Source of the DNA: an uncultured candidate division Zixibacteria bacterium | GTDB taxonomy: Bacteria; Zixibacteria; MSB-5A5; UBA10806; 4484-95 | Reading direction: 5' to 3' | NCBI GenBank assembly: GCA_963668625.2 | Contig: CAXXKA010000008.1 | Location: 736,001 to 800,000 of the forward strand | Length of the DNA: 64,000 nucleotides | Shown here: piece after piece, positions 21,104 through 41,545 of the stretch | Numbering within the stretch: position 1 is the first letter of the stretch | Layout of the letters: each line of letters begins with the position of its first letter | The notes under the pieces: model-generated | Seen by the model: only the letters and a program-made list of their open reading frames with translations | The model's database searches: none | What the model was told of the DNA's origin: nothing | Position numbers and translations under genes: made by a program

Positions 21104-21952
21104 TTGCAGAGTTTACATTCCGAAATAATGCAATGTCTGGCTGATATAGGTCTTTCCGAGCGCGAGGCCCGCGTGTATCTGGCGATGCTCAATAATCGTA
21201 ATGCTACCGCGGCCGAATTGCAAAAGCATTCCGGTGTACCGCTAAGTAAGATCTATGAGGTCATCGATGGACTCGTGAGAGCGGGCTATTGTACCGAAAG
21301 AAAAATCGGCCGTAAGAAGATGTTCGAGGTCTTAAATCCCGACATCGCTCTTGATACATCGTTTAAAGAGCTAAAAAGTCGTTTGGAAAACTCACTCAGT
21401 ATCAAAAAGAAATTATCAAATATTTATTCCTCCTCGAAAAAAATGTCCAATCCCTCCGAGTATATAGAGGTTCTGCGCGGTAACGATAATATTCATCACC
21501 GTTACTGCCAGTTGGTGAGCAATACGCGCAAGGAGCTTCTCGGTTTTAACCGCCGCCCCTACGCTTGTGATACGCAGGATAAATACACGTATCAAAACGA
21601 TGTCGAGCTTGAAACCTCAACGCGCCATGCAGTATCTCGCTGGGTATATGATCTGGAGCTTCCCGGCGAGGAATGGCTTATACCCAATTTGCGGAACCTT
21701 CGCGATAAGGGCCAGGGAATAAGGGTCGCCGAAAAATTACCTTTAAAAATGATGATATTCGATCGCGAGTTATTACTGGTAGCGGATGAGCCTGAGCCAT
21801 TCAGCCAGCCCGGAGATTTAACGATGTCCGTTATCAAGCAGGGGACTATCGTAAACGCATTTTTAGCGATGTTCGAATATTTCTGGGACAGCTCGATTGA
21901 GCTTGATTTATGGGAAAAAATGCAACTACCACTAAGTATATACAGAGAATAG
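21104..21952 (+). CDS. TrmB-family transcriptional regulator
   Basis: GLSEREARVYLA, SGVPLSKIYEV wHTH; LPLKMMIFD effector domain. Confidence 0.9.
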   Translation: MQSLHSEIMQCLADIGLSEREARVYLAMLNNRNATAAELQKHSGVPLSKIYEVIDGLVRAGYCTERKIGRKKMFEVLNPDIALDTSFKELKSRLENSLSIKKKLSNIYSSSKKMSNPSEYIEVLRGNDNIHHRYCQLVSNTRKELLGFNRRPYACDTQDKYTYQNDVELETSTRHAVSRWVYDLELPGEEWLIPNLRNLRDKGQGIRVAEKLPLKMMIFDRELLLVADEPEPFSQPGDLTMSVIKQGTIVNAFLAMFEYFWDSSIELDLWEKMQLPLSIYRE

Positions 21953-22017
21953 GGTGGTAATTAGAATAGCGAATAAAAATAGTGGTCTTAGACGTAAATA
22001 ATTTACAGGAGAAGCAG

Positions 22018-23846
22018 ATAAAGAAATTGTTAATTTTGTTAGTGCTCGCTCTGGTGCCGGTTTTGGTATCAGGCCAGACCTTTATCGAGGAAGGTTTCAA
22101 TACCTGGCCGCCCGAGGGTTGGTCGGCTGATTCTCATCCGAATAACTGGCATGGCGCTGACGGTGATGAGGCCGGCGGTGTTGCACCCGAGGCCGTATTC
22201 GATTGGAGCCCTAAATTTTCCGGCACTACGCATTTCATGTCTCCCGAATTTGACCTGACGGGTGTGATCTAGCTTTATTTCGAGTTTAATCACAAGATCG
22301 ATCATTTTACGGTGGCGCTTATACAGTTGGTGTTGCCACTCGTCACGGCGGCGGTGCATGGAATACTGTCTGGTCGATTTCCAACCCCAGCGGTAATGTC
22401 GGCCCGGCTACTGTTTCCGAACAGATAAGCAATGATGATGTCGGCGCGAGCGATTTCCAGATATGTATATTCTTCTCGGGCAGTTCATATAATGTCGATT
22501 TTTGGTATTTCGATGAGTTCTTTCTCTATTCGCCTTTAGCTCATGATATGAAGCTCAAGAGGCTGGTCATCGATGACCAGTACGAACCGGGTAATCCAAT
22601 GGTACCGGCGGCGCTGGTACAGAATTTCGGTTTGAACGATGAGACATTCGATGTCAACTGCGAGATATTCCTGGGTGATGTAAGCGTATATAATGAAACT
22701 CTGGAGGATATTACTTTCGAATCGGGCGAGCAAGAGACTATCGCGTTCCCGGCTTATAATATTACCGACGCCAACGAGTTGTTCCGGGCTGTATTTACCA
22801 CTATTCTCGATAGTGATATGAATGAGTCCAATGACAGCCGCTGGGAGTATTTCAATACCTATACCACTCCCCGGGATATGGTGTTGCTCGAGATCGGTAC
22901 GGGTACCTGGTGCCAGTACTGTCCCGGCGCGGCCATGGGCGCCGAGGATCTTGTGGGCCATGGACTGAACGTGGCCGTGGTCGAATATCACCAGGGTTCG
23001 ACCGATCCGTTCCAGAATGCCGAGGGCCTGGAGAGGATCGACTATTACGGTATAAGCGGATATCCCACCGCCGTTTTCGGTGGGTTGAAAAAATACGTGG
23101 GCGGCAGTAACACCGAGAGTATGTATTCGGCTTACCTGCCTCTCATTCAGGAAAGAGCGGTTATTAATACCGCATTTACGATGGAATTATTCGGCGCAAA
23201 CGAAGGTTACGATTATAATATCATGACACGGGTTACGAAAATGGCCACGATACCATATGAGAATATGGTTGTTCATGTTGCCCTGACCGAGTCGGGTATC
23301 GCCTATAACTGGCAGGGCCAGACTCACCTCGAGTGGGTTGAGCGCGATATGGTCGAAAATGCTGATGGCGAACCGATCAATTTCGGCTCTGGTGATGTTC
23401 AGCAGGTTGAATTCGATTTTAACCTCGATCCCGATTATGATTTATCGGAGTGCGAGCTCACCGCCTGGGTGCAGAACCTGGACAATAAAGAGGTGCTGCA
23501 GTCGACTAAAGTCATGCTTACGGATTTAACACCTGTTGCCATCGATGATGACATGGTGGTTTTGCCGAGTCGCACCAGGTTGGGCGCCAACTATCCCAAC
23601 CCGTTTAATCCATCAACAATGATTGAATTCTCGATCGAATCTCCCGGTGATGTAATCCTGGAGGTATACAATATCATGGGCCAGAAAGTTAATACAGTCG
23701 TTAACTCGAGGCTCGAAGCCGGCAACCATCAGGCGTTATGGAACGGTACGGATGAGTCCGGCGCCGGTGTTGCCTCCGGTACATATTTTTATAAGCTGAC
23801 TACGGATGATTTCAGTCAGACTAAGAAAATGGTCTTGATGAAGTAG
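22018..23846 (+). pseudogene. Disrupted secreted Omp28/thioredoxin-like (WCQYC) protein with T9SS-like CTD
   Basis: ATA in place of start after AGGAG; in-frame TAG 22270-22272; 1-nt deletion near 22309; downstream frame continues into the 22548 ORF. Confidence 0.8.
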
Positions 23847-25329: not shown

Positions 25330-25633
25330 ATTGCATATGCCTGTTCTCGGTTGGTTTGTTGAATGCCCATCGGAAAGAGATTATTGAAGCTTAACTGTTT
25401 TTTAACTGATGTCGGCCTTATACCGAGCGCTTTTAATGTAGCTACATTTGGCGATATCATTTTGTTGACATTGGCGGGCAATGTGTTATATTAATGCTGC
25501 TAATCTGGCTGAGGGTTACAGGCAAACTTCCGGAGTTGTTGAAAATTCCCATATCTATGTGGAAGGAGGATATTCATCCGGCATGTAATTCTAATGTATC
25601 ATATTTTCATGATAAGCAAGGAATGGAGTTGAT

Positions 25634-27970
25634 ATGAGATCCAGATTTACCAGGTTATTGTTGGTACTGTCTGCGGTATTGTTGTTCGGGGGAGCTTTAC
25701 AGGCTCAGAATGTGCTTGTGTGGGATAACGATAACGGATCGGATTATAGCGATCCCGATAACGGCGTGACTCGCAGTTGTGAGTATGGTATCGTGCAAGC
25801 TCTTAGCGCGAATAATATTAACTATACGACTTTGTCTTACCTGCCATCCTATTTGGATAATTACGATATCATATTCGTTGTGCTCGGTGTCTACTGCCGT
25901 AGCTGAGGGGAAACCCCTCCCGGATCAGTTGGATCCGAACAACAAGATGAATTAGTCGAGTTCATGAATGATGGCGGCGCTCTATACGTAGAGGGCTCGG
26001 ATGTAGGCTGTAGCCACTATACCACCGAATTTTTCGAATATCTCGGGGCCGACTATATCAGGCAGGGTGATGGCTATAATACCATAAATGAAATAGAAGG
26101 CGTTGAGGGTACTTTTACTGCTCCTGATCTTTTTTCGTTTCCGGACGGAGACCCTGACTACAAAGTAGATGAACTCGGAGCAGGAGAAGGTACCGGTATT
26201 CTTCGATGTCAGGAGGATATAGTCAGGACAGTGCTCTATGAGGGAGCAAATTATCGAGCTATCACCTCCTCTGTAACTTTCGGTGTTCTGGAAAACAGGC
26301 AGGAAAGTTCTACGAGAGCTTTGCTCATGGAGCGTTACCTGAATTTCCTCAACGGTAACGATGGCAGCGAATTCTGGTGTTCGCATGGCCAAATCGATTT
26401 TGGCGTGCAGTATATCAGCTATGATTCGGTAATCAATATAACGATGCAGAATTTCGGCCAGGGTGGTTTGTATATAAGCGATATAGGTATCACCGGCGAG
26501 CAATTCTCGATTGATTGTGAGACGAGTTACTCGCTTGCGAGCGGCCAACGGATCGAGTTGCCCGTAAGATTTTACAGTGATGAAATCGGATACTATATGG
26601 GGGCAATTACTTTGACCACCAATGATCCGGATGAGACATCCGTTACGATACCTGTTGAAGCCGAATGTTTCGGGTCGCCTGTAGTTGGGCTCGAACCGAC
26701 GGCGTTTAATGTAGATATTTTAGCGGACCAGATTACCCAGAGGATAATGACCATAGCCAACAGCGGTGAAAGTCGTCTCAGTTTTAATATCCAGATAGTT
26801 GATTCGCACGAGTTGGTCGGTACTACTGATCACCGGACGAATGATGAGTGCGATATCGAGGCAGTGTCGCTGGCGAAGGGCGAATATGATTACCGTCAGG
26901 GGCCACCGGTTGTTTGCGGTTCCGGCGGGCCTGATGATTTCGGCTATAAATGGATAGACAGTGATGAAGCCGGGGGACCGGTATATCAATGGTTCGATAT
27001 TTCAGAGATAGGACAAAATACCGGCTTGGAGGGCGATGACGAAATGGTGACCATACCTCTGCCGTTTGGTTTCCATTATTATGGCAATGAATACGATGAG
27101 GTAACTATCAGCACGAACGGCTATCTCACGTTCGGCAATGACGGTGAACATTATGGCAATCACAATATCCCATACTCTGAGCACCCGAATAATATAATAT
27201 GTCCGTTCTGGGATGATTTAGAACAGGAATCAGGCTCGAACTATAGCCACTACGATCAGACTAACCATAGGTTCATAATTCAATACCAGGATTGGGGATT
27301 TTACTCCGGTGGCGGTTCGCTCGATTTTCAGGTACATCTCCTCGAAAATGGTGTGATATTTTTCTACTACAGGAACTTGATCGGAAGCCTGACCTCCGCG
27401 ACAATCGGAATCGAAAACTCAACCGGCGCCGATGGCCTTCAGGTAGCCTATAATTCCAATTACCTTCACGATGAAATGGCTATTCAGTTTAACGCCGGGC
27501 CGATCTGGATCACTATGAACGAGAGTATTGGGATCGTACCGGTGGATTCCACTCATGATATAATTTTCACTTTCGATGCTACGAGCGTTGATGAGGGTGT
27601 TTATACGGCCGACATTATATTCGGATGTAATGACCCTGAAACTCCTCGAATAGTCGTGCCGGTTACCATGAACGTGAATTTAACCGGTATCGGGGATGAG
27701 TCGCTGCCATACGTTACGGAGCTGACCGGAAACTATCCGAACCCGTTCAACAATTCCACCGTAATCAGTTACTCGATCGATAAACGTACTCATGTCAGCC
27801 TTGACATATATAATTTGCTGGGACAGAAAATTGTTACGCTCGTTGATGATATCCGGGATGCCGGTGAATATCGGGAGATATGGCAGGCGGATGTTTCCAC
27901 CGGTGTATATTTCTACAGGTTAAACGCCGGTGATTATGTCTCGCAGCGAAAGATGATCTTATTGAAATAA
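25634..27970 (+). CDS. Probable secreted selenoprotein (CxxU, Sec91; 778 aa): alpha/beta N-domain + Ig-like (choice-of-anchor D) + GGPD domain + CTD
   Basis: Track ORFs 25634-25906 and 25964-27970 are in the same frame, separated only by TGA 25904-25906: VYCRS*GETPPGSVG; SECIS-like hairpin follows. Confidence 0.8.
25921..25937 (+). promoter_or_regulatory. Candidate bacterial SECIS element
   Basis: CGGATC-AGTTG-GATCCG, core stem starting 16 nt after TGA. Confidence 0.65.
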
Positions 27971-27981
27971 ATCGTGTCCGG

Positions 27982-28007
27982 CCTGGTCGTGTCAGATCAC
28001 GACCAGG
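27982..28007 (+). terminator. Hairpin between the paralogs (weak terminator or stabiliser)
   Basis: CCTGGTCGTG-loop-CACGACCAGG, short T-run a few nt later. Confidence 0.5.
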
Positions 28008-28181
28008 TCGATTTTAGGATTTGAAATTTCTGCGCTGACAGTTATATTGTTGATATAATCGGAAATAGCGCACAGGTTAATATCTTAGCAATTGGCAACA
28101 TAAATTCATATCGGGATAAAAAGGAGGTGGAAACGCAATCCCCGTATCGAAGTTTTGGTCAGGGTAAATCCTTTTTAGGAA

Positions 28182-30473
28182 GTGAGTAGTATAATGTTTA
28201 AAAAAACTTTAGGTCTTTACCTGATAGTAACCGTGATTTTTCTGATCGCTGATACACTCCAGGCACAAAATATACTTATTTGGGATAACGATAATTCATC
28301 CCATTATTATGATTCGGAAGAGGGAGAATCGAGAAACTGTGAGTATGGAATCCAAAGGGCGCTGACCGACAACCAGGTTAGCTATGTAACTCGCAGCAAC
28401 CTGCCCCTGGATATATCGGATTATGATATCGTATTCGTCGTCCTGGGCGTCTACTGTGTCGGGTGAGGAATCACTCCACCGGGAACCGTGGGTTCCTCAG
28501 AACAAACGATTTTAATGGATTATATGAATGACGGCGGGACGGTTTATTGCGAGGGCTCGGATGTCGCTTTTTCACATCAAAGCACGGACTTTTTAGATTA
28601 TTTCGGAGTAGAGTTTATAGATCGTGGAGAGGCGAACGCAATCGATATGATCCGTGGCGTCGATGGCACGTTCACCGCCTCGGACCGATTCGATTTTCCC
28701 GACGGTGATGCCGATTACCTTATCGATGAGCTGGCAATGGTTAGCGGAACAGGTTTTCTAGAATGTCAGAATAATATTAGCCGCGCGGTTTTTTATGATG
28801 AGGGCGGTTATCGAACGATTATATCCTCAGTAACTTTAGGCGCTTTATTCGATGGCGAAGATACCAATACACGGGCCGTATTGATGGAGCGGTACTTGAG
28901 CTTTCTGACCGGCGATGAAAATCCCAATCTCTGGCGCTCACATGACACGATAGATTTCGGCACTAATTACGCGGGTTATGAATCGACTGTAGATTTTAAA
29001 ATTAAGAATATCGGATTGAACGGCTTGAATATCAGCAACGTTAACATTACCGGCCAGTGCTTTACGTTCGATGGCGATACGGATTACATGCTCGATGTCG
29101 GTGAGCGCGTTACCTTACCGGTGACTTTTTTCAGCGAGACCGCGGGAAATTACGATGGCGCGATAACGTTTACCACCAACGATCCTGACGAGGAAAATAT
29201 TTCGGTAGAACTGACCGCGGAATGTATTTCCGCCCCGGAAATCGAGATATCCGATGATGAATTATATGTTGAGCTAAACCGCGGACAGGTAGTTGATCGG
29301 ACATTTTCGATTACGAATATAGGCTTGAACGATCTGGAGTTCAGAATCGAAACTCTTGAAACGAGCGAACCTGGTCTGGTAGGCGATTACCGAAATGATG
29401 ACGGCGAGCCGGTTGTTTGCGGCTCGGGAGGGCCGGATACTTACGGCTATATATGGGTCGACAGCGATGAGCCGGCCGGGCCGGAATTCGAATGGCTGGA
29501 TATCTCCGGAATTGGCGAGGATATCGGGTTACAGGGATTCGATAGTGGCGAATTCATCGATTTGCCTTTTAATTTTGGTTTTTACGGCAACACATACGAT
29601 CGGATAATGGTCAGCACGAATGGCTATCTGACTTTCGATACCGACCCTACTGAATATATGAACCACAGGATACCCGATTCGCAGGAGCCTAACAATCTTA
29701 TCTGTCCGTTCTGGGATGATCTCTACCCCCGGGATGGCAGGGTTTACTACTATCATGATTCAGACCGTCAGAGGGTGATTATACAGTACGATAAATGGGA
29801 GTATTACTCGGGGTTCGGTGATTTCACATTGCAGGTGCATCTTCTGGAAAACGGTGTAATTTATTTCTATTACGAGAAAATCAACGGCTCAACCACCTCA
29901 TCCACTGTCGGTATCGAGAGCGCTGAGGGTAACGATGGTCTCGAGATCGTATATAACAGCTCGTATCTCAGGGATAGTCTGGCCATAAGAATTAATGCCG
30001 GTCCGAAGTGGCTTGGGTTGGATGAACTAGCAGGGGCCTTAACTCCTGGTTCGAGCATGAATTTAGTTTTCACTTTCGACGCTCGGAGTATCGGGGAGGG
30101 TACTTACACGGCTGATATGTATATCTATAATAACGATCCCGCCAATCCCGAGATTACGGTGCCGGTGACCATGCTGGTAAATATCGTTGGCGCAAAGGAC
30201 GAAACGCTGCCGTATGTGACGGAGCTCAAAGGCAACTATCCCAACCCGTTTAACGGCGCCACCTCGATAAGTTACTCGCTCGGTAAGCGTACTTATGTAA
30301 CGTTGGATATATTCAATGTGCTGGGAAGGAAAGTGACCAGGCTGGTCGATGAGGTTAAGGCAGCCGGTAATCATAGTATTGTATGGCGGGCGGATGTTTC
30401 CAGCGGGGTGTATTTCTACAGGCTAACCGCCGGCGATTATGTTTCGCAAGAGAAAATGATTTTGTTGAAGTAG
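28182..30473 (+). CDS. Probable secreted selenoprotein, paralog 2 (CxxU)
   Basis: Track ORFs 28182-28466 and 28488-30473 in frame across TGA 28464-28466: VYCVG*GITPPGTVG; alternative start ATG 28194 puts the TGA at residue 91. Confidence 0.8.
28482..28496 (+). promoter_or_regulatory. Candidate bacterial SECIS element
   Basis: GGAACC-GTG-GGTTCC starting 16 nt after TGA. Confidence 0.65.
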
Positions 30474-30494
30474 AGTATTGAGATTAATGACTCG

Positions 30495-30527
30495 ACCGGG
30501 GTGTCGTATGGGCATCCCGGTTTTTTT
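30495..30527 (+). terminator. Intrinsic terminator
   Basis: ACCGGGGTGTC-loop-GGCATCCCGGT followed by T-tract. Confidence 0.8.
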
Positions 30528-31022: not shown

Positions 31023-32261
31023 TTGTATAAGAAGTACGCTTCTATTTTTTTAGCTATAATTTTCATCCTGGGAAGTATCGCTTATGCCCAGGATGCAGGT
31101 GATACGAATCCAGCAGATCAATCCCCGGACGGCATGCCCCCATATCCCAAACCCGACCCGCCACGTAACCTTATAGTCAAAGATAACCCGAGTGACGGTG
31201 GCGGCAGGATTTTAGTCGAGTGGGAGTTATCCGGTGATGATGGAGCGGGGAAAGAGAATGTCATTGGTTACGAGATATACCGCGCCGTAGCCGGTGATAC
31301 TAATTTCGTCTCGATTGGTATGGCCTCCGCCGGCGCCGATCTCTATATCGATTCTGGTGTCGAGGATGATACGAAATATATATATAAAGTTGCCGCTACC
31401 GATGGTGTGTGGCGTTCGTTCACCGCGGCTACCAACCCGGTACACTCCTCCCAGCAATGGTTTAATTTGAATCTCAAATACCTGTTTTTGATCGGGCTTT
31501 TGATTTGCGGCTCGGTCATATATTTCATATTCCGGGCACAGGGCGGCAGAACCTTATTTATCAGGAAAATAGCCGGTCTTGAGGCTATTGATGATGCCGT
31601 TGGGCGCGCCACCGAGATGGGGCGTCCGGTGCTTTTCATCCCCGGTATCCGCGATATGGACGATGTGCAAACTATCGCCGGTATCACTATTCTGGGCAGG
31701 GTTGCCCGCACGATTGCAGAATACGATATCAAAATAAATATGCCGGTTTCGCGTTCGATCGTTATGACCACGGCACGCGAGACTATCAAAGCGGCTTACG
31801 CGCAGGAGGGACGAATCGATGCTTATTCCGATGAGTTCGTTTACTATCTCACCGATGAACAGTTTGGCTATGTTGCAGCAGTAGATGGTATCATGGTGCG
31901 TGATAAGCCGGCCACATGTTTCTATATGGGGTCGTTTTTCGCTGAAAGCTTGATTTTCGCCGAGACGGGCAACTCGATCGGCGCTATACAGATTGCCGGT
32001 ACGGCTATGCCGGCGCAGTTGCCGTTTTTCGTAGCCGCTTGCGACTATACCTTAATAGGCGAGGAGCTATTCGCCGCCTCGGCCTATCTATCTGGTGAGC
32101 CTCGTCAATTAGGCAGTCTTAAAGGCCAGGATGTTGGCAAGGTTATCGCCATGATAGCTATTATTATTGGGGTACTGGCTGCAACTTTGCATTCGGCTAC
32201 CGGGCTGGAGTTTTTCGGTGATTTTCATCAAATTGTGAAAGATTTGTTTACCACCAACTGA
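31023..32261 (+). CDS. Module 1 subunit A: FN3 + DUF6754-like membrane protein
   Basis: Signal peptide, FN3, TM, AIDDAVGRATEMGRP, FFAESLI, LIGEELFAASAYLS. Confidence 0.85.
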   Translation: MYKKYASIFLAIIFILGSIAYAQDAGDTNPADQSPDGMPPYPKPDPPRNLIVKDNPSDGGGRILVEWELSGDDGAGKENVIGYEIYRAVAGDTNFVSIGMASAGADLYIDSGVEDDTKYIYKVAATDGVWRSFTAATNPVHSSQQWFNLNLKYLFLIGLLICGSVIYFIFRAQGGRTLFIRKIAGLEAIDDAVGRATEMGRPVLFIPGIRDMDDVQTIAGITILGRVARTIAEYDIKINMPVSRSIVMTTARETIKAAYAQEGRIDAYSDEFVYYLTDEQFGYVAAVDGIMVRDKPATCFYMGSFFAESLIFAETGNSIGAIQIAGTAMPAQLPFFVAACDYTLIGEELFAASAYLSGEPRQLGSLKGQDVGKVIAMIAIIIGVLAATLHSATGLEFFGDFHQIVKDLFTTN

Positions 32262-32271
32262 TGGATAGGAT

Positions 32272-33033
32272 ATGGTAGGGATAATAATCACAGCGATAGT
32301 AGTAGCGATTCTGATGGCCACCATAATCATAGCGGCGACGAAAGCCAGTGTTCGCCGCCAGGTACCTCTTCTGATTACAGCCATTGTCGGTACGGTACTG
32401 GTGGTATCGGTATTTATCCCGCATGATCCTTTCGGCAGGCTGGGTGAGGACTTTTCGGTATTTTTCGATATTATCGCCGTATTCGCATTCATTTTAGGCG
32501 GCGGTAACCTGATACGCGTTCATGGCGACCGTATCTATCGTTTGAAAAAAGACTGGATATTCTCGATCGTTACTGTCGCCGGCTTTTTGGTTACGCTCAT
32601 AGCCGGCGCTTTAAAAATCGGCAACCCGGATGGTATCCGTGGGGATGTGGCCGCGCCCGGTTCGCTTTTCACGTTGATTTACGATAATATTTTCACGCCG
32701 CTTCAAGCCACGATGTTCTCCATCCTGGCGTTTTTCGTAGCCTCGGCCTCGTACAGGGCTTTCCGCGCGAAAAATAAGGAAGCTACTATCCTTCTGATTA
32801 CGGCTTTTATCATTCTTCTGGGTAGAACACCGGTCGGGGATTATATCACGTTCTGGTTGCCCTCCTGGTTGAGTTTCTTCCATGTGCCGAATCTGGCCAA
32901 CTGGATCATGGCTATACCTAATCTTGCGGGTCAACGAGCTATTATGATAGGAATTTCACTTGGCGTCGTCTCGATGTCGCTTCGCGTTATTCTGGGTATC
33001 GAGCGTGGTTATATCGGTTCGGAGGGCGAATAA
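32272..33033 (+). CDS. Module 1 subunit B: polytopic membrane protein
   Basis: ATMFSILAFFVASASYRAFR, PN.AGQRAI..GI.LG, ILGIER. Confidence 0.85.
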   Translation: MVGIIITAIVVAILMATIIIAATKASVRRQVPLLITAIVGTVLVVSVFIPHDPFGRLGEDFSVFFDIIAVFAFILGGGNLIRVHGDRIYRLKKDWIFSIVTVAGFLVTLIAGALKIGNPDGIRGDVAAPGSLFTLIYDNIFTPLQATMFSILAFFVASASYRAFRAKNKEATILLITAFIILLGRTPVGDYITFWLPSWLSFFHVPNLANWIMAIPNLAGQRAIMIGISLGVVSMSLRVILGIERGYIGSEGE

Positions 33034-33034
33034 A

Positions 33035-33634
33035 GTGAAAGCGGTTATCCTGACAGTTATAACGCTTATGCTAAGCCTCAGCGCATATGGCGCCGATTTT
33101 TCGGATTACCGGCGCATAGCGATAGCCGCACCGCTTATCAATCAGATATTTACAAATCCCGAGATATCAGAAGCCGAAGATTTACAGCTTCAACCGGAAA
33201 CACAAATCATGTTGTACGAGGAGCTGGCGGGACGGTTCTGCGATGCGTTGGCCGGTCATTATGATGATGAAATCGAGTTTATCTGTTTTAACGATATTAA
33301 AGGCAAGCTCGATAACGATAGTTGGAATGAGTTCAATAAATCTTTCACCGGGCAAAATGATGTCACCCCGGAGACGGCCACGAAGTTTGCCGGGCAACTT
33401 CAGGCAGACGGCGTACTGAGCACGTACCTGATGTTCAGCTATTATGAAAGCGATGACAGGAAAAGAAATTTAGAACTTCATTTCGAATGGTACCTGGTTG
33501 AATTAGAGAGCGGCAAGGTTACACTTTCCGATCAATTCGATTGCAAGGATGATTTTGGTATTGATGAGGTATCCGAAAAAGAGGTGAAGTGTTTCAATAA
33601 GGTAGTCAAAAGTTTGGCGGATTCAGGACAATAA
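33035..33634 (+). CDS. Exported hypothetical protein unique to module 1
   Basis: GTG 33035 start gives signal peptide; YRRIAIAAP...ADGVL pattern reminiscent of CsgG/LpoB-like folds. Confidence 0.7.
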   Translation: MKAVILTVITLMLSLSAYGADFSDYRRIAIAAPLINQIFTNPEISEAEDLQLQPETQIMLYEELAGRFCDALAGHYDDEIEFICFNDIKGKLDNDSWNEFNKSFTGQNDVTPETATKFAGQLQADGVLSTYLMFSYYESDDRKRNLELHFEWYLVELESGKVTLSDQFDCKDDFGIDEVSEKEVKCFNKVVKSLADSGQ

Positions 33635-33637
33635 ATT

Positions 33638-34516
33638 ATGGCTGGTACTTTTTTCGACAAGATCAAGAATATCGACCGGCGGATCATATTCACGTTTATC
33701 TCACTTTCGGTGATAATTCCGCTTCTGTTGAATATCCGTTTCGCCGAGAAAGGCAGCCCGATTGTCACCAGTATATTCGACAAGGTGGAATCGCTGCCGG
33801 CCGGTTCGAGAGTGCTTATCTCGATGGACTACGGGCCATCTACGGTACCAGAAATTCAGCCGATGGTGAACGCTATCGTCCGTCACTGCAACGAACGCGA
33901 CCTGAAAATTTACTACATGTGTCTCTGGGCTACCGGGCAAAACCTAACTACGTTAACGGTCGATTCGGTTCAGGTAACCGAATTCCCCGATAAAGTTTAC
34001 GGTGTAGACTACGTGAATTTAGGCTATAAAGCGGGTAACGAGGGGCTTATCAATGTCCTGCTGACTGATATGAAGAAGATGTATACTACGGATGTTTCGG
34101 GCACGCACGTGGATGATATCGAGGCTATGCGGGCGATTAAAAACCTCACCAGTTTCGATCTCATATTCGGGCTCGGCGGTGGTACTCCGGGAATCAAGGA
34201 GTGGATACTGTTCGCCGGTGATCCGGGGCGTATTCCGGTAGCCGGTGGTTCGACCGCGGTTCAGGCGCCGCTTCTGTACCCCTACTGGCCCAATCAGCTT
34301 CTGGGCTTGATGGGCGGCATAAAAGGCGCTGCCGAATACGAGTCTCTTCTGAGAAACAACTACCCGAAATACAAGCAAATGAGCAGTCCGGCTTTACAGA
34401 TGATGGGGCCGCAAGCTATCGCGCATATCGTGATTATGCTTTTTATCATTATCGGCAATATCACTTTCTTCATCGAAAAGTCTCGTGATGCCAAACGCAA
34501 AGCGGGGGTGAGTTGA
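33638..34516 (+). CDS. Module 1 subunit C: two TM helices around a soluble alpha/beta domain
   Basis: IDRR, DYGPS...E, DYVNLGYK, GGIKGAAEYE, AIAH. Confidence 0.85.
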   Translation: MAGTFFDKIKNIDRRIIFTFISLSVIIPLLLNIRFAEKGSPIVTSIFDKVESLPAGSRVLISMDYGPSTVPEIQPMVNAIVRHCNERDLKIYYMCLWATGQNLTTLTVDSVQVTEFPDKVYGVDYVNLGYKAGNEGLINVLLTDMKKMYTTDVSGTHVDDIEAMRAIKNLTSFDLIFGLGGGTPGIKEWILFAGDPGRIPVAGGSTAVQAPLLYPYWPNQLLGLMGGIKGAAEYESLLRNNYPKYKQMSSPALQMMGPQAIAHIVIMLFIIIGNITFFIEKSRDAKRKAGVS

Positions 34517-34517
34517 T

Positions 34518-35201
34518 ATGAGTATATCACCTGATATCTGGACCTGGTTCGGAGCTTTTCTGACCATATCGATTCTCTCGTTTCTGTATAAAGATAACGC
34601 TTTTTATAAATTCGCCGAACACCTTTTCGTCGGTGTTTCGGCTGCATACTGGATGGTGATCGGTATATGGGGAACGCTTTTCCCTAACCTTATCGCCAAG
34701 ATACATCCCGGGGCAGTCAGGTTCGTTCTGCCCTCGTTGGCCGATAGGGAACCCGAGTACTGGTATATCATCCCGGCAGTTTTTGGCCTTCTGATGCTAA
34801 TGCGTCTTTCGAGCAAACTGGGCTGGATGTCACGTTGGCCGCTGGCTTTTATCGTGGGAACCACCGCCGGTCTGAACTTGATCAGGTATCTTCGTTCAGA
34901 TTTTATCGGGCAGGTTCAGAATACGATGATACCCTTGATCGCTTTCAAGGATGGCTCGTTCAGTTTCCTCGATAGTTTCTCGAATATCGTGATTTTCGTT
35001 GGCGTATTTTGCGGATTAATTTATTTCTTCTTTTCCAAAGAGCATAAAGGTGGTTTCGGAGTCGCCAGCCGGATAGGTGTCTGGATACTCATGATAACAT
35101 TCGGCGCAGGTTTCGGTTATACCGTTATGGCCAGAATTTCTTTATTGGTTGGGCGGATGCAATTTTTACTGGGGGATTGGCTGGGAATGATTAATCGGTG
35201 A
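34518..35201 (+). CDS. Module 1 subunit D: polytopic membrane protein
   Basis: SFLYKDN.FYKFAEH..VG, YFFFS.EHKG, FGAGFGYTVMARISLL. Confidence 0.85.
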   Translation: MSISPDIWTWFGAFLTISILSFLYKDNAFYKFAEHLFVGVSAAYWMVIGIWGTLFPNLIAKIHPGAVRFVLPSLADREPEYWYIIPAVFGLLMLMRLSSKLGWMSRWPLAFIVGTTAGLNLIRYLRSDFIGQVQNTMIPLIAFKDGSFSFLDSFSNIVIFVGVFCGLIYFFFSKEHKGGFGVASRIGVWILMITFGAGFGYTVMARISLLVGRMQFLLGDWLGMINR

Positions 35202-35400
35202 GCAATGTAGTTGTGAAAAAAAACATTAACGCTAACAACATTAAGATACCCAAAAGGTTAGCTTATTACTTTTACCATCAATTAACCGCCATAAATTTAT
35301 TTAAACTGGAAGTATGAAGCTTTAGATAAGTAAGTATGATGAGTGTAAAAATTATCATATGATATTAGTAAAAATAAATAAAAATAAACGGAGGTAGCGT

Positions 35401-36657
35401 ATGAGAAAAATTAATGGGTTATTCGTAACCTTAATTTTCTTAATGTCATTGGGAGGAATAGCGCTCGCCCAGGGTGATATACCCGTTGAGGGTGAGATGG
35501 CCGTGGAAGCTGCGGATGCGCAAAGTCCACCGGCCCCTCAACCGCCAACCAATGTGATCATTACGGACAGACCGAATGATGCCGGCCATGGGTTGATGAT
35601 TGTATGGGACCTTTCGCCCGATGACGGCGCCGGAATGAATAGCGTACAAATGTACGAAATATTCCGTGCCGGTTCCCCTGACGGCGAATTCATATCCCGC
35701 GGCATTATTCCCGCCGGCGATAATGAGTTCGAGGATCAGGATGACCAGGAGAGCGGCGGCAGGGGGCCAAATCCCAATTATATGCCGTCTAACAGTACCT
35801 GGTATTACAAAATAACGGCGGTTTCAGAGGATGGTATTCACTCCGAGGGAACCCCGGTCGTTTCCGGTACTACCAAAGCTAACATTTTCCACTGGGGCAA
35901 ATTGCCGATATTGTTCGGCGTATTGATATTCGGTGGATTCTTGCTGGCTTTTATCTCTCAGGCCAAAAGTGGTAAAGAATTGTATGTCCGACCCTTATCC
36001 GGTATCAATGCCGTTGATGACGCTATCGGTCGTGCCACCGAGATGGGCAAACCGATCCTGTTTATTTTAGGATTGGGAACCGCCGGCGATATCGCGACTA
36101 TCGCGGGATTTACGATCCTGGCACGCGTGGCCAGGAGAACCGCCGAATACCAGACCAAGGTGCTGGTACCGGTGCAGGATCCTGTCGTGCTGGCCGTTGC
36201 CCAGGAAACCGTGAGAACGGCTTATCTGGAGGCCGGTCGTCCCGATCAGTACAATCCCGATAACGTATTTTACGTGACTGCTTTGCAGTTCCCATATGTA
36301 GCCGCGGTAAACGGTATCATGCTTCGTGAAAAACCGGCCACCAATTTCTATTGTGGCAAGTTTTACGCCGAATCGCTGATTCTGGCGGAGACCGGCAATA
36401 TCGCCGGTTCGATTCAGATATCCGGTACCGACGAGATCGGCCAGTTGCCGTTTTTCGTAGCGGCCACCGACTATACTTTGATCGGTGAGGAGCTTTACGC
36501 CGCCTCGGCATACCTGTCGCAGGAGCCGGTTCAGCTCGGCACATTGAAAGCCCAGGACTATACTAAGGCCGTGGTTATGGTCATAATTCTGATCGGCACG
36601 ATTTTGATAACCGCCGGAGCGACTTTCTTTTTAAATATGGTAACTGTAAACCTGTAA
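35401..36657 (+). CDS. Module 2 subunit A (FN3 + DUF6754-like)
   Basis: Paralog of 31023: AVDDAIGRATEMGKP, LIGEELYAASAYLS. Confidence 0.85.
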   Translation: MRKINGLFVTLIFLMSLGGIALAQGDIPVEGEMAVEAADAQSPPAPQPPTNVIITDRPNDAGHGLMIVWDLSPDDGAGMNSVQMYEIFRAGSPDGEFISRGIIPAGDNEFEDQDDQESGGRGPNPNYMPSNSTWYYKITAVSEDGIHSEGTPVVSGTTKANIFHWGKLPILFGVLIFGGFLLAFISQAKSGKELYVRPLSGINAVDDAIGRATEMGKPILFILGLGTAGDIATIAGFTILARVARRTAEYQTKVLVPVQDPVVLAVAQETVRTAYLEAGRPDQYNPDNVFYVTALQFPYVAAVNGIMLREKPATNFYCGKFYAESLILAETGNIAGSIQISGTDEIGQLPFFVAATDYTLIGEELYAASAYLSQEPVQLGTLKAQDYTKAVVMVIILIGTILITAGATFFLNMVTVNL

Positions 36658-36673
36658 CCCGGAGATTGTATTA

Positions 36674-37291
36674 ATGAAAAGAGAAATTCCAATTCTGATC
36701 GTCGGGATTACCGGTTTTGCTATGCTTATCCAGTATTTCATCCCGACCGATTGGTCACAAACTATTTTCACCTATTCCCAGGACTGGATTATCGTGATCG
36801 GTATTATCTCGATGCCCCTGGGCATTTGGAGTTTGGTGAAAGCTAATGTCTTGAAACTTAAAGTGCCCGGTGAGAGATTCTATTCGGCAGTTTTGCTGGC
36901 TGGTTTTCTTATCATGGTATTAACCTGTCTCAAGGACGAGAATCGTGTCATGGGCAGTTTCCATATGGATCTGTTCAGTTACGTTCTCGTGCCGATTCAG
37001 GCTACTATCTTCTCGCTGCTGGCGTTTTTTATCGCCTCGGCTGCTTACAGGGCATTCAGGGCGAGATCGGTTTTGGCCACGGTGTTGCTTGTAACGGCAT
37101 TTATCATAATGCTGCGCTTTATCCCCCTCGGCCCGATATCGACTCTCAACCTTACTGCCGTATCCTGGATACTTCAGGTGCCGAATATGGCGGCTAACCG
37201 TGCTATTATGATGGGAATTGGCCTGGGCGCTACAGCGACGGCCATGAAGATAATTTTGGGCGTTGAACGAACCTATATGGGTCATGATTGA
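36674..37291 (+). CDS. Module 2 subunit B
   Basis: ATIFSLLAFFIASAAYRAFR; ILGVER. Confidence 0.85.
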   Translation: MKREIPILIVGITGFAMLIQYFIPTDWSQTIFTYSQDWIIVIGIISMPLGIWSLVKANVLKLKVPGERFYSAVLLAGFLIMVLTCLKDENRVMGSFHMDLFSYVLVPIQATIFSLLAFFIASAAYRAFRARSVLATVLLVTAFIIMLRFIPLGPISTLNLTAVSWILQVPNMAANRAIMMGIGLGATATAMKIILGVERTYMGHD

Positions 37292-37304
37292 GAGGCGGTA
37301 AGAT

Positions 37305-38144
37305 ATGGATTTTATGCAAAAAATGATGTCGATCGACCGCCGTTGGGTATATCTGGCTATAGGATTAGCGGTAATTATCCCCGCTATCTGGTCGTTCGAT
37401 GTTCCGGTAGCTGTTTCGCCCGAGGTTAAAAGGATTTACGATTTCGTGGAAAATATGGAAGCCGGTGAGCATCTGTTTATCTGCGTCGATTACGATCCCT
37501 CCTCGATGGCCGAGCTAAACCCGATGGCTGTTGCTATCGTCAACCAGGCTTTCGAGAAAGATATCAAGATTATCTTCGTTACCCTTTCGCAGTTCGGTCC
37601 CGGACTGGTCGAGCAGATCACCTCGGGGCTGGCCGCCGATCACGGTAAGGTAAACGGGGAGGATTACGCTTTTCTGGGATATCGTCCCTACCCGGCTATC
37701 GTTATTCTGGCGATGGGCGTGGATTTCCGCGTACCGTTCCCTCAGGATTATTACGGTACACCGCTGGATTCGCTGCCGGTTCTGGAAGGTATCAAGAATT
37801 TCGATGACTGCAAAGGCGTGATCGAGATTACCTCCGGTAATACCGCCGAGTTCTGGTTGATCTACGGCAACGGCCGCTATGGTTTCCCACTGGCTATCGG
37901 TATCACCGGCGTTATGTCCGCCAACTACTATCAGTACCTCTCCTCGGGTCAGCTTTTCGGAATCATTCCCGGTGTCAAAGGCGCCGCCGAGTACGAGGAA
38001 TTAGTAGGTTATCCCGGCGAGGGTAAAGCCCAGATGGCCTATCAGGTGATTGCTCACGGGGTGATTATCTTGTTTATAATCATTTCGAATATTGCCTTTT
38101 TCACTACGAAAAAACGTAGAGGCGGAATAGAAGGAGGTCGCTGA
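37305..38144 (+). CDS. Module 2 subunit C
   Basis: IDRRW, DYDPSS.AE, GVKGAAEYE. Confidence 0.85.
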   Translation: MDFMQKMMSIDRRWVYLAIGLAVIIPAIWSFDVPVAVSPEVKRIYDFVENMEAGEHLFICVDYDPSSMAELNPMAVAIVNQAFEKDIKIIFVTLSQFGPGLVEQITSGLAADHGKVNGEDYAFLGYRPYPAIVILAMGVDFRVPFPQDYYGTPLDSLPVLEGIKNFDDCKGVIEITSGNTAEFWLIYGNGRYGFPLAIGITGVMSANYYQYLSSGQLFGIIPGVKGAAEYEELVGYPGEGKAQMAYQVIAHGVIILFIIISNIAFFTTKKRRGGIEGGR

Positions 38145-38797
38145 TGGTACCGGAAAATATGACAACTTATGAGTTGATTTTCAACGGAATTGCGGTTTTC
38201 CTTACACTCTGCATTTTCAGTTTCCTGTACAAGGATAACCCGTTTTACAAGTTCGCCGAACGTCTGGTGGCGGGTGTGGCGACCGGCTATTTTACCATGT
38301 TGTTGTTCTGGACGAATTTCATGGATAAAGTGGTCGAGCCGATTTTCTACAATGGCCAATACCTGTATATCTTACCGGCCCTTCTCGGAGTTTTGATGTG
38401 GACGCGTTTCTCACAGAAATGGACATGGGTGTCGCGTTACTCGATAGCTATCTATATCGGTGTCGGTTCTGGTGTATCGGTTACTATTTACCTTTACACT
38501 TACCTGTTCAAACAGCTTCAGGCCACTATCGCTTACCCGATAGGATTCGATCTGGCCGGTGTCAACCAGCTACTGGTCGTTATCTGCGTACTGGCATCGC
38601 TGGTTTATTTCTTCTTCTCCACTCCGCATAAAGGCGTGGTGGGCGCTGTTTCCCGGATAGGTATCTATGTTATCATGATCGGTTTCGGCGCAGGTTTCGG
38701 CCTGACCGTAATGGGTCGTGTAGCTCTTTTGGTCAACAGGGTGATATTCCTGAAAAGTTACCTCTTAGGAGTATCCAATTTCTTTTTTGGCGGCTAG
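38144..38797 (+). CDS. Module 2 subunit D
   Basis: FSFLYKDNPFYKFAE; FGAGFGLTVMGR. Confidence 0.85.
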   Translation: MVPENMTTYELIFNGIAVFLTLCIFSFLYKDNPFYKFAERLVAGVATGYFTMLLFWTNFMDKVVEPIFYNGQYLYILPALLGVLMWTRFSQKWTWVSRYSIAIYIGVGSGVSVTIYLYTYLFKQLQATIAYPIGFDLAGVNQLLVVICVLASLVYFFFSTPHKGVVGAVSRIGIYVIMIGFGAGFGLTVMGRVALLVNRVIFLKSYLLGVSNFFFGG

Positions 38798-38811
38798 GTA
38801 TTTAAATAGAT

Positions 38812-38841
38812 GGTGGGTCGATTCGTTCGACCCGCCTTTTT
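38812..38841 (+). terminator. Terminator-like hairpin between modules 2 and 3
   Basis: GGTGGGTCGA-TTCGT-TCGACCCGCC-TTTTT. Confidence 0.65.
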
Positions 38842-38856
38842 CCCAGGGGGATATTC

Positions 38857-40044
38857 ATGCGCGGGTGTAGAGTCCCGTTCCTCACGATTTTCACTCTGTT
38901 GACGCTGGTAACGCTGGTAACGCTGGTTTCGGCACAGGCCGATATGGATACGCTTACAGCGCCGGCTTTACCGCAGGTTGAAAATATCAAAGTATATGAT
39001 AAGCCCAACGATCCCGGCCGGACACTGGTGATCGAATGGGATATTCCGCTTTCTTATGATAAGACAACTGTCGCCATTGATGGTTTTAAGATTTATAATG
39101 CTGAAAGTCCGGAGGGGCCGTTCGAGCTTCTGGCTACACTGGCCGCCGGATCGAATCGATACGAATGTTCCGGCCTTACCGATGGCCACGATTATTTTTT
39201 CAATATCACTAGTTTTTCCAATTCTCACGAATCCGAGATAGCAACAGCCGGACCGGCCTCACCCAGCGGTCAATGGTTTAATACCGATCGTGTCCCGATC
39301 ATGCTTATGGTGATACTCTTTTCAGCTACAGCAATCGCTTTCATCACAAAAGCCAGGATGGGTTATAGCTTTTACGTGCGACCTATCGCGGGGATCAGGG
39401 CGGTTGATGACGCTATCGGCCGGGCCACCGAGATGGGACGACCGATACTGTACGTGCCGGGTCTGGGCACTGCCGCCGATGTCGCTACGATCGCGGCTTT
39501 CACCATACTCGGGCGAGTTGCCCGAAAGGTGGTCGAGTATAACACCCGGGTGATCGTACCCAATTACGATCCCGTGGTGATGGCCGTTTGCCAGGAGGTC
39601 GTAAAGGAGGCTTACTCCTCGGCCGGAAAACCGGAGCTGTACGACCCGAAAGATATTTACTTTATCACCCAGGATCAATTCCCCTATACGGCGGCTGTCA
39701 ACGGGGTAATGCTTCGCGAACGACCGGCGACTAATTTCTATATGGGGATGTTCTATGCCGAATCACTGGTACTGGCCGAAACCGGTTTCGTCTCCGGTTC
39801 GATACAGATCGCCGGAACCGATCAACTCGTGCAGATACCGTTTTTCGTGTCAGTTTGCGATTTCGTACTGATGGGCGAGGAGCTTTACGCCGCCAGCGCT
39901 TACCTTTCCAAAGAGCCTCAGCAGCTCGGTACTTTAAAAGCCCAGGACTGGGGCAAGGTTCTGGTTGTTTTGCTTATGATTTTAGGTGTAATATTCTCAA
40001 CGATTGGCTGGGAGGCATTCGCCGCCTGGTTCGATGTTGGTTAA
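38857..40044 (+). CDS. Module 3 subunit A (FN3 + DUF6754-like)
   Basis: AVDDAIGRATEMGRP, MGEELYAASAYLS. Confidence 0.85.
   Translation: MRGCRVPFLTIFTLLTLVTLVTLVSAQADMDTLTAPALPQVENIKVYDKPNDPGRTLVIEWDIPLSYDKTTVAIDGFKIYNAESPEGPFELLATLAAGSNRYECSGLTDGHDYFFNITSFSNSHESEIATAGPASPSGQWFNTDRVPIMLMVILFSATAIAFITKARMGYSFYVRPIAGIRAVDDAIGRATEMGRPILYVPGLGTAADVATIAAFTILGRVARKVVEYNTRVIVPNYDPVVMAVCQEVVKEAYSSAGKPELYDPKDIYFITQDQFPYTAAVNGVMLRERPATNFYMGMFYAESLVLAETGFVSGSIQIAGTDQLVQIPFFVSVCDFVLMGEELYAASAYLSKEPQQLGTLKAQDWGKVLVVLLMILGVIFSTIGWEAFAAWFDVG
38902..38927 (+). repeat. 9-bp tandem repeat (ACGCTGGTA, about 3 copies) in signal peptide
   Basis: Encodes TLV-TLV-TLV. Confidence 0.85.
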
Positions 40045-40058
40045 GATGAGAGTTTGCG

Positions 40059-40703
40059 ATGCGTAGAGAGGTTCCGCTTCTTATAGTATTCCTATTCGGG
40101 ATATTCATGATCGTGCAGTATTTTATTCCCCATCGCTATATGGCGAATATTTATCAGGAGTTCAACAACTGGACTATCATTATAGGCATATTCACGATGA
40201 TCGTGGGCATCGGTTCGCTTACCACGGTTCATTACAGTCGGATAAAGTTCAGGAAAGAAGGCTGGTGGTATTCGGTGGTTACCATAATATCGCTTTTCGG
40301 GATGGCCGGAATCGGTATTTTCGGAGGAACCGAGAATGATCTTTTCCTCAACCTGTATCGTTATGGGCTTTCGCCCGTTACCGCTACCATGTTTTCTCTT
40401 CTGGCGTTTTTTATCGCCTCGGCGGCTTATCGGGCGTTCCGCGTGCGTAACATTATCGCCACCCTGCTTTTGTTGGCGGCGGTTATCGTAATGCTGGGGC
40501 GGGTGCCCGTAGGTGAAATAATCACGAGTTGGCTGCCCGAGTGGTCGCGGTTACCCAGCCTCGCTAATTTTCTTCTGACCGTACCGAATGTTGCCGCCAA
40601 GCGCGCCATATATATCGGAGTCGGTTTGGGCGTGGCGGCCGTTTCATTGAAAATCATTTTAGGTATCGAGCGCACCTGGCTCGGTGGGGATGGCGGTAAG
40701 TGA
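40059..40703 (+). CDS. Module 3 subunit B
   Basis: ATMFSLLAFFIASAAYRAFR; ILGIER. Confidence 0.85.
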   Translation: MRREVPLLIVFLFGIFMIVQYFIPHRYMANIYQEFNNWTIIIGIFTMIVGIGSLTTVHYSRIKFRKEGWWYSVVTIISLFGMAGIGIFGGTENDLFLNLYRYGLSPVTATMFSLLAFFIASAAYRAFRVRNIIATLLLLAAVIVMLGRVPVGEIITSWLPEWSRLPSLANFLLTVPNVAAKRAIYIGVGLGVAAVSLKIILGIERTWLGGDGGK

Positions 40704-41545
40704 TGGCCGAGAACACGAAAACATTCTGGGAAAAGATGCTACAGATCGATCGACGCTGGATATACCTGGCGATGGGCATCGCCGTATTCGTACCGCTCAT
40801 GTTCACTATGGGATTACCGGTTTATGTTACCGAGGAGGTCGAGTCGGTTTACGATTATGTCGAAAATTTGCCGCCCGGTACTGTCGTGATGATTCCCTGC
40901 GAGTACGATCCGGCCACGATGGCGGAGCTAAGACCGATGGCTCATGCTATATTCCGTCACTGTTTCTCGCGTGATCTTAAAATAGTCTCCACCTCCCTGC
41001 AAATCGAGGGTGTTACCCTGGTGAAAGAGGATCTGGCCTTGATTGCCTCTGAATATGACAAGAATTATGGCGAGGATTACGTATTCTTGGGCTACAAGCC
41101 TTACCCGGCTATCGTGATATTGAATATGGGGGAGAATTTCAGAAAACCGTTCCCCAAAGATTATTACGGTACCGAACTCGATGAATTGCCCATGATGAAG
41201 GGCGTGATGAATTATTCGAGCTGTGCCTGTATAATAAATATCAACGCCACCTCGGGGGCCGATTACTGGATTAACTATGCCAACGGGCGTTACAAGGCGC
41301 CGCTGGCGTTGGGAGTGACCGCAGTCATGGCTACGGACTACTACACGTTTTTATCCTCGGGACAGATATTCGGTTTGATGGGCGGTTTGAAAGGCGCCGC
41401 CGAATACGAGAAGCTGATCGGTAAAAGCGCCAGGGCTACAAAGGCTATGGATGTTCAATCGATAGCGCATTCTGTGATCGTGGTATTTATCATACTGGGT
41501 AATATCGCGTTTTTCGCCTCTCGCAAAAAACGGAGGGGGATGTAG
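40703..41545 (+). CDS. Module 3 subunit C
   Basis: TGATG coupling to subunit B; IDRRW, EYDPAT.AE, GGLKGAAEYE. Confidence 0.85.
   Translation: MAENTKTFWEKMLQIDRRWIYLAMGIAVFVPLMFTMGLPVYVTEEVESVYDYVENLPPGTVVMIPCEYDPATMAELRPMAHAIFRHCFSRDLKIVSTSLQIEGVTLVKEDLALIASEYDKNYGEDYVFLGYKPYPAIVILNMGENFRKPFPKDYYGTELDELPMMKGVMNYSSCACIININATSGADYWINYANGRYKAPLALGVTAVMATDYYTFLSSGQIFGLMGGLKGAAEYEKLIGKSARATKAMDVQSIAHSVIVVFIILGNIAFFASRKKRRGM

Follow-up and report, generated by a model that had tools for sequence, protein, structure and literature searches.

We analysed a 64,000-nt window (contig CAXXKA010000008.1, positions 736,001 to 800,000) from an uncultured candidate division Zixibacteria bacterium, in which two tandem paralogous genes each contain an in-frame TGA codon followed by a small RNA hairpin. 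The initial annotation of this stretch had read the hairpins as compact, lineage-specific selenocysteine insertion sequence (SECIS) elements. With the TGA taken as a selenocysteine (Sec, U) codon, both genes encode long proteins that combine a CxxU motif in a glutamine-amidotransferase (GATase)-like domain with immunoglobulin (Ig)-like and NIDO-like regions and a tail resembling the type A sorting domain of the type IX secretion system (T9SS). The features concerned are listed below by window position; hairpin nucleotides are numbered throughout with the U of UGA as 1.

25634..27970, plus strand: paralog 1, 778 aa with TGA taken as Sec; signal peptide (by inspection), GATase-like CxxU domain, Ig-like and NIDO-like regions, T9SS type A-like sorting domain
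25706..26356, plus strand: N-terminal domain of paralog 1, predicted class I glutamine-amidotransferase-like fold, without a Pfam or NCBIfam model
25895..25906, plus strand: C88-x-x-U91 motif of paralog 1 (TGA at 25904-25906), aligned with the CxxC of database proteins P0008 and P0009
25905..25919, plus strand: mini-hairpin overlapping the UGA of copy 1, present in the window fold, not kept across the family
25921..25937, plus strand: probable SECIS hairpin of the first copy, paired from 18:34 through 23:29, its 5-nt loop containing G25 (25928) and U26
27734..27958, plus strand: T9SS type A-like C-terminal sorting domain of paralog 1, PF18962 and TIGR04183 above cut-off
28194..30473, plus strand: paralog 2, 759 aa if TGA is Sec, architecture as in paralog 1, to which it is 52% identical
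28455..28466, plus strand: C88-x-x-U91 motif of paralog 2 (TGA at 28464-28466)
28481..28497, plus strand: probable SECIS hairpin, copy 2, pairs 18:34 to 24:28, GUG loop (28488-28490)
30237..30461, plus strand: T9SS type A-like C-terminal sorting domain of paralog 2, PF18962 and TIGR04183 above cut-off

Both TGAs (25904 and 28464) fall on codon 91, and the paralogs align without indels. Across the family the codon stands in the context L-G-V-Y-C-x-x-[TGA]-G-x-T-P-P-G. Each paralog carries the two marks of T9SS type A cargo, an N-terminal signal peptide (by inspection) and a C-terminal sorting domain, and these lie on opposite sides of the TGA site. Elsewhere in the window TGA acts as a normal stop, ending 14 of 51 correctly read long open reading frames (ORFs; 52 were examined, one of them mis-stranded).

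Inspecting the hairpins confirmed the letters and positions originally given for them: the stems occupy 25922-25936 and 28482-28496, each 15 nt past its UGA, with a loop GU in register (G25-U26 in both copies) and a compensatory change at pair 22:30, which is U-A in copy 1 and A-U in copy 2. Beyond the claimed stem, an additional outer pair, 18:34, also differs on both sides (C-G in copy 1, G-U in copy 2), and copy 2 is able to close C24-G28, leaving the GUG loop. On their own, the two window copies are weak to modest evidence. Under synonymous recoding (20,000 trials), all five pairs of the claimed stem arose by chance with a frequency of 5.0% for copy 1 and 6.3% for copy 2. Nor is the identical offset independent evidence, since the paralogs are free of indels and much of the stem is set by the peptide G-[ST]-V-G-S. 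Small hairpins overlapping each UGA, together with an alternative long pairing, had also been proposed; these do form in folds of the window sequence, but their registers differ between the copies, and as a conserved element they fail, being complete in just 5, 1 and 1 of the 52 type A genes introduced below, window copy included.

We surveyed homologs by scanning GTDB genomes with one codon pattern that admitted any TGN at both Cys positions. The scan gave at least 120 matches, and the list comes to 122 distinct ones with the window’s two included; 111 are family members, and 11 chance, non-family matches were dropped. Among the matches listed, the site codon of the 111 family genes is TGA in 107 cases, TGC in four and TGG in none. 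The 82 assemblies represented, mostly Bacteroidales and Cloacimonadota, include 78 with TGA at the site and 23 with two or three copies of the gene. At the protein level, a profile search of 1.84 billion representative proteins returned 1114 matches at E ≤ 0.001, 150 of them listed. Comparison of 158 proteins revealed that all nine N-terminal fragments (two of which are the window’s own) stop just before the site and that many entries begin just past it; seven database proteins have CxxC, with the TGA aligning to the second Cys in P0008 and P0009, and the wider parent family has no Cys there. Two attributes expected of a selenoprotein gene, conservation of the TGA in other genomes and its alignment with Cys, are present. 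The family spans several phyla of anaerobic bacteria, and its genes are split in two by gene callers. A few taxonomic labels (L031, L040, L001, L044) are at odds with sequence affiliation: Clostridia- and Chlorobiota-labelled records fall in the Bacteroidales clade and two Armatimonadota-labelled ones among Cloacimonadota, reflecting mis-binning or transfer.

The strongest evidence for the hairpin comes from the type A genes, that is, the 52 distinct TGA genes outside the Bacteroidales clade (duplicates over nt 1-48 were removed, two from type A and one from type B). The initial annotation had suggested looking for the stem in TGA-bearing homologs, and all five pairs, 19-23/29-33, are complete in 41 of the 52, as opposed to a mean of 3.8 and a maximum of 11 in 1000 synonymous shuffles. 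It is this excess, and not the pair of window copies, that places the hairpin beyond chance. Pair 21:31 is AU in 18 genes, UA in 14, CG in eight, GC in three and GU in two, with seven unpaired; pair 22:30 is GC in 18, AU in 14 and UA in 10, with 10 unpaired. Two-sided changes number 72 compared with 28.8 in shuffles (none of 500 reached the observed count), and registers slid along the sequence score far lower. Unconstrained RNAalifold predicted 20-23/29-32, and the MI-APC covariation score singled out 22:30 (0.81) and 21:31 (0.76), the next pair scoring 0.24. When changes were placed on a protein tree, 22:30, 21:31 and 23:29 emerged as the top three of 861 column pairs for compensatory change, with 10, nine and four two-sided events, respectively, and four, three and one breaks. 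Peptide variants such as GEVLS and GVVYS preserve the pairing. A covariance model of type A run over the window returned no further convincing site (best other E, 0.89).

A hairpin of ≤ −3 kcal/mol with a G in the first two loop positions is present in 51 of the 52 type A genes (null 15.5, maximum 26), and the four genes lacking G25 all have a GGUC loop at nt 33, that is, 8 nt downstream. The excess of folding over shuffles is greatest at nt 13-42. The hairpin is a real feature, and the type A stem is under RNA-level selection, an unusually clean example of natural covariation within a coding region. Upstream of the UGA (nt −41 to −3), mean folding energy also lies 1-2 kcal/mol below that of synonymous shuffles, both in type A and in the Bacteroidales group; no consensus structure was found there despite this excess.

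Linkage to the Sec machinery is evident among the homologs. In the Bacteroidales clade the family gene heads a selC-selA-selB(-yedF-selD) cluster: of the 33 longer loci, 19 have a tRNA-Sec(UCA) on the strand of the gene, 0.8-2.8 kb downstream of it, and three others are partial cases; selA and selB come next and, in 11 loci, yedF and selD as well. One representative each of selA, selB, yedF and selD was tested and scored above cut-off. Flanks of the other TGA loci contain tRNA-Sec in three of 32 cases, those of the Cys loci in none of four. SelD encoded beside family genes has Cys rather than Sec in the three cases examined (L002 15367-16401; L019; L060).

We then compared the window copies with known elements. 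The bacterial SECIS consensus, as set out in a 2026 review, has a loop of 3-9 nt, an upper stem of 4-16 bp, a G as first or second loop nucleotide, a spacing of 16-37 nt from UGA to loop and a minimum free energy (MFE) of ≤ −7.5 kcal/mol (PMC13188914). Copies 1 and 2 agree with loops of 5 and 3 nt, stems of 6 and 7 bp, G25 in both, UGA-to-loop distances of 20 and 21 nt and MFE values of −8.8 and −8.9 kcal/mol over nt 16-45. They thereby resemble this bacterial SECIS (bSECIS) model in loop size, stem, loop G and spacing as well as in their coding position just past the UGA; they differ from it in having no conserved lower stem, and nothing essential differs. The fdhF element of E. coli, which we take to have a G23-U24 loop and a bulged U17, likewise has an apical-loop GU about 20 nt past the UGA, whereas the window GU lies at 25-26, with neither bulge nor lower stem. 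The description of the element as lineage-specific finds no support, as the same stem recurs in Zixibacteria, Cloacimonadota, one Ignavibacteria-labelled and two Armatimonadota-labelled genomes and satisfies a generic bacterial model. Given the consensus fit and the occurrence across phyla, this would be an ordinary compact SECIS rather than one specific to Zixibacteria.

The SECIS reading of the initial annotation has thus gained support: an in-frame TGA, Cys orthologs paired with it, RNA-level selection on the stem, including tree-aware covariation, and sel-gene linkage in homologs have all been obtained, and the window hairpin is very probably a compact, consensus-type bacterial SECIS for Sec at codon 91. 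SelB carrying Sec-tRNA binds the SECIS loop through its last winged-helix domains (PMC4605307). We infer that, in the window organism, SelB-GTP-Sec-tRNA(Sec) would bind the apical-loop G at nt 25, 20-21 nt past the UGA, and that the bound complex would outcompete termination, with Sec inserted at codon 91. The products would be the full-length 778- and 759-aa proteins in place of 90-aa truncations, and these would be exported. There, the CxxU may serve as an extracytoplasmic thiol/selenol-disulfide redox centre. The motif, the exported architecture and the neighbours (ResA/TlpA-like and DsbD-like genes at three to four loci each) make this the most likely role, at about an even chance; the main competing possibility is that the motif binds a metal or metalloid.

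Several observations weigh against the SECIS reading. Neither sel genes nor tRNA-Sec were found within the 64-kb window, and none of the 120 SelB proteins listed out of 7757 matches is assignable to the window genome. A search for Cys/TGA pairs over the fetched loci and the window returned no other selenoprotein genes. Rfam SECIS families had no matches in the window, and none was among the four matches obtained over 25700-28700 with E allowed up to 10; taken as an isolated hairpin, copy 1 reaches −7.3 kcal/mol, just short of −7.5 (copy 2, −8.3). Two of five covariation measures, namely the pair-type counts, did not exceed shuffles. Furthermore, the scan pattern was blind to TAA and TAG as site codons, and since it prescribed nt 13, 14, 17, 19 and 20, invariance at these positions is not evidence.

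It is the Cys-codon genes that weigh most against an exclusively Sec-specific reading. Three of the four TGC genes (L013, L024 and L059, but not the fourth, L066) contain the full stem, formally the equal presence in Cys-codon homologs that the initial annotation had counted against its own proposal. In these three, nt 16-33 are unchanged and six of six fourfold sites are identical, while elsewhere the figures are 30 of 78 and 24 of 67, so that retention of the stem exceeds what simple drift predicts. All three genes fall in a single clade (support 100) that sits within the TGA genes, for which reason their hairpin complicates the SECIS reading without overturning it. On a quick IQ-TREE tree (61 rows) the Cys label needs two changes, and one origin remains compatible. 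No tRNA-Sec was found in the 20-kb flanks of the three loci. A SelB protein with an intact wing pattern (P0173; see below) is possibly from the L059 genome, and the retained stem could therefore be explained by TGA having become TGC recently and in parallel, or by insertion of Sec at UGC. Precedents exist for a SECIS-like hairpin past a Cys codon, as Sec insertion at Cys codons has been described in Aeromonas salmonicida (PMC10778597) and a remnant SECIS after a Sec-to-Cys change elsewhere (PMC1794560). That the TGC clade itself inserts Sec at its Cys codon is rather unlikely. Within nt 16-54 past the TGC, these three genes also have a second predicted hairpin at about nt 42-54.

The unchanged hairpin of the Cys-codon clade would also fit selection for a role unrelated to Sec, for example in pausing or mRNA stability, whether instead of SECIS function or besides it. 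We regard this as improbable: the loop G keeps to the position given by the SECIS consensus and, in genes that have lost G25, reappears 8 nt downstream, the form of the hairpin changes in the same clade as the tip of SelB, and P0173, if from L059, leaves room for the explanations of retention just given. The view that peptide conservation past the site produces the stem incidentally, without selection as RNA, is already largely refuted and exceedingly improbable. While G19, G20, G25, U26 and C32 are largely set by Gly, Val and Ser/Thr codons and either window copy alone could arise with a chance of 5-6%, peptide constraint does not account for 41 complete stems against a null maximum of 11, for repeated two-sided changes on separate branches or for a folding excess concentrated at nt 13-42; moreover, pair 19:33 is formed in none of the 52 Bacteroidales genes despite a similar peptide.

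Two further alternatives concern the codon rather than the hairpin. Were the TGA a true stop, the genes would be pseudogenes, or would encode a short exported peptide and a re-initiated downstream protein. The regular use of TGA as a stop in 14 of the 51 window ORFs, the splitting of these genes by gene callers and the broken state of a neighbouring gene (21982-23846) are compatible with this. The site nevertheless lies inside one confidently folded predicted domain, aligned with Cys and flanked on opposite sides by signal peptide and sorting domain, and the TGA is present in 78 assemblies, with selC-selA-selB linkage in Bacteroidales, rendering a true stop very unlikely. Global reassignment of UGA to Trp or Gly, or read-through independent of a SECIS, is scarcely credible, as window genes use TGA as an ordinary stop and TGG occurs in none of 111 family genes while TGC does occur. 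Two database proteins, known as protein only, do have Trp at the Sec position (P0014, P0155); a gene caller possibly translated their TGA under another code.

If the window hairpin is a SECIS of the consensus type, its Bacteroidales counterpart is of a different kind, and it is to this hairpin, not the window’s, that the term lineage-specific applies. The 52 Bacteroidales-clade genes have a stem of 16-26/34-43 with a 7-nt loop at 27-33, in which G31 and A33 are invariant. Pairing in it amounts to 87.5%, and two-sided changes number 15 where shuffles give 5.6, a weaker covariation than that of type A. With its 7-nt loop beginning at nt 27 and its invariant G31/A33, it does not fit the bSECIS model, and a G in the first two loop positions is found in two of 52 genes, fewer than the 8.0 that shuffles give on average (the count covers perfect contiguous stems only). 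SelB also differs. A wing pattern of the type T-x-R-x-[GD]-D-x-R, present in both Cloacimonadota SelBs and in 95 of the 120 of their relatives listed, is absent from all 16 full-length SelBs of Bacteroidales loci. The pattern aligns with Moorella SelB, whose C-terminal residues are kept in Cloacimonadota SelB; the Bacteroidales SelB C-terminus, used as query, found no SelB structure. As a side observation, a response-regulator receiver domain (PF00072) is present on SelBs of about 820 aa in nine of the 120 listed (P0198, P0207, P0208, P0226, P0230, P0239, P0242, P0243, P0270).

These sequence patterns suggest, at most, co-evolution of the Bacteroidales hairpin with the SelB tip, given that the contrast rests on two clades. 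We tentatively propose, with slightly more doubt than confidence, that the one Sec codon of an undescribed exported CxxU selenoprotein family is decoded by two hairpin-SelB pairs, the partners of each pair being specific for one another. In Zixibacteria and Cloacimonadota the hairpin would be of the consensus type and the SelB tip standard; in Bacteroidales, a non-consensus hairpin with a late G in its 7-nt loop would be read by a same-operon SelB whose RNA-binding wing has been rebuilt. The latter would constitute a natural orthogonal SECIS-SelB pair. A 2006 survey reported no Sec decoding in Bacteroidetes. The 2026 review acknowledges selenoprotein genes that do not satisfy the SECIS model and states that there must be distinct classes (PMC13188914), and the BSepDB description puts canonical elements at just 87.4% of entries. 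The Bacteroidales hairpin and its SelB would provide one concrete distinct SECIS class and possibly an orthogonal Sec-insertion pair.

With respect to the protein, AlphaFold2 modelling of the N-terminal domain (~217 aa; alignment of 137 sequences) gave a pLDDT of 97.3 and a predicted class I glutamine-amidotransferase-like fold, with the CxxU in a loop after strand 3. The best structural match is 2gk3 (Z 17.3, rmsd 3.0, 187 of 217 residues aligned), in agreement with Foldseek. GATase1-like STM3548 (2gk3), 3rht, GH42 middle domains and ThuA-like proteins share the fold (Z 14.9-17.3, rmsd ~3, 176-187 aligned), with 13% identity and a CxxU loop that is specific to the window family. No Cys is conserved after strand 4 (Y-x-E-G/S), the presumed position of the nucleophile elbow, whose Cys would act with His-Glu in a catalytic class I amidotransferase. 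PDB sequence searches with the domain yielded nothing relevant. The parent domain, which lacks the Cys, occurs as a building block of large secreted proteins, one of them a C25 peptidase (P0097).

Residues 25-245 had no NCBIfam 20.0 match at E 0.1 and no Pfam match at E 0.01; NF041425 matched the Ig region only, far below cut-off. In the 119-family selenoprotein table (PMC13188914 Table 1), no entry matches by name or motif. Going by fold name, the closest relative on the list is NF004836, which likewise has Sec in a glutamine-amidotransferase-type protein, whereas the window family is predicted to be exported, has CxxU and a sorting domain, and gives no NF004836 match at E 0.1. We found no description of the CxxU family or the Bacteroidales hairpin in the open-access literature. 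The exported CxxU family is therefore likely, though not certain, to be new relative to this table and NCBIfam 20.0; the window hairpin itself is of a known kind, and what is new is the family and the Bacteroidales variant. Predicted export, a T9SS-type tail and CxxU on a GATase-like fold would set the family apart from the mostly thioredoxin-fold families listed.

Two candidate regulatory elements flank the paralogs:

25465..25492, plus strand: sigma-70-like promoter match upstream of paralog 1, 11/12 with extended −10; a consensus match only
30494..30522, plus strand: terminator-like hairpin 3′ of paralog 2, predicted from sequence

The promoter-like site is the top scorer of 14 found, with 13.4 expected from shuffles. 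Genes around the family gene of a Zixiibacteriota locus (L057) match the window neighbours at up to 80-90% identity, an affinity that points to Zixibacteria as the probable source of the window. About 2 kb upstream of the paralogs lies an Omp28-related gene (21982-23846, plus strand) that encodes CxxC and a sorting tail. It is broken near 22270, where a TAG occurs and the frame changes, a sequencing error or pseudogene. It is a distant relative (74 bits, cut-off 200) of the listed Omp28-related selenoprotein family NF045500 (GOS_C, UxxC), and like the paralogs it ends in a sorting domain; NF045500 is unrelated to the GATase-like domain, and the window neighbour has CxxC. A TrmB-family regulator lies 3.7 kb upstream (21104-21952, plus strand), and distant relatives of it (27% identity) occur near family genes in L003, L067 and L076. 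Downstream, a membrane-protein gene cluster (31023-42238, plus strand) is repeated about three times, with DUF6754 on its first gene and a first copy 80-90% identical to L057 genes. Finally, 50744-54019 on the minus strand encodes an exported protein of 1091 aa, whose C-terminal repeat is presumably dockerin-like.

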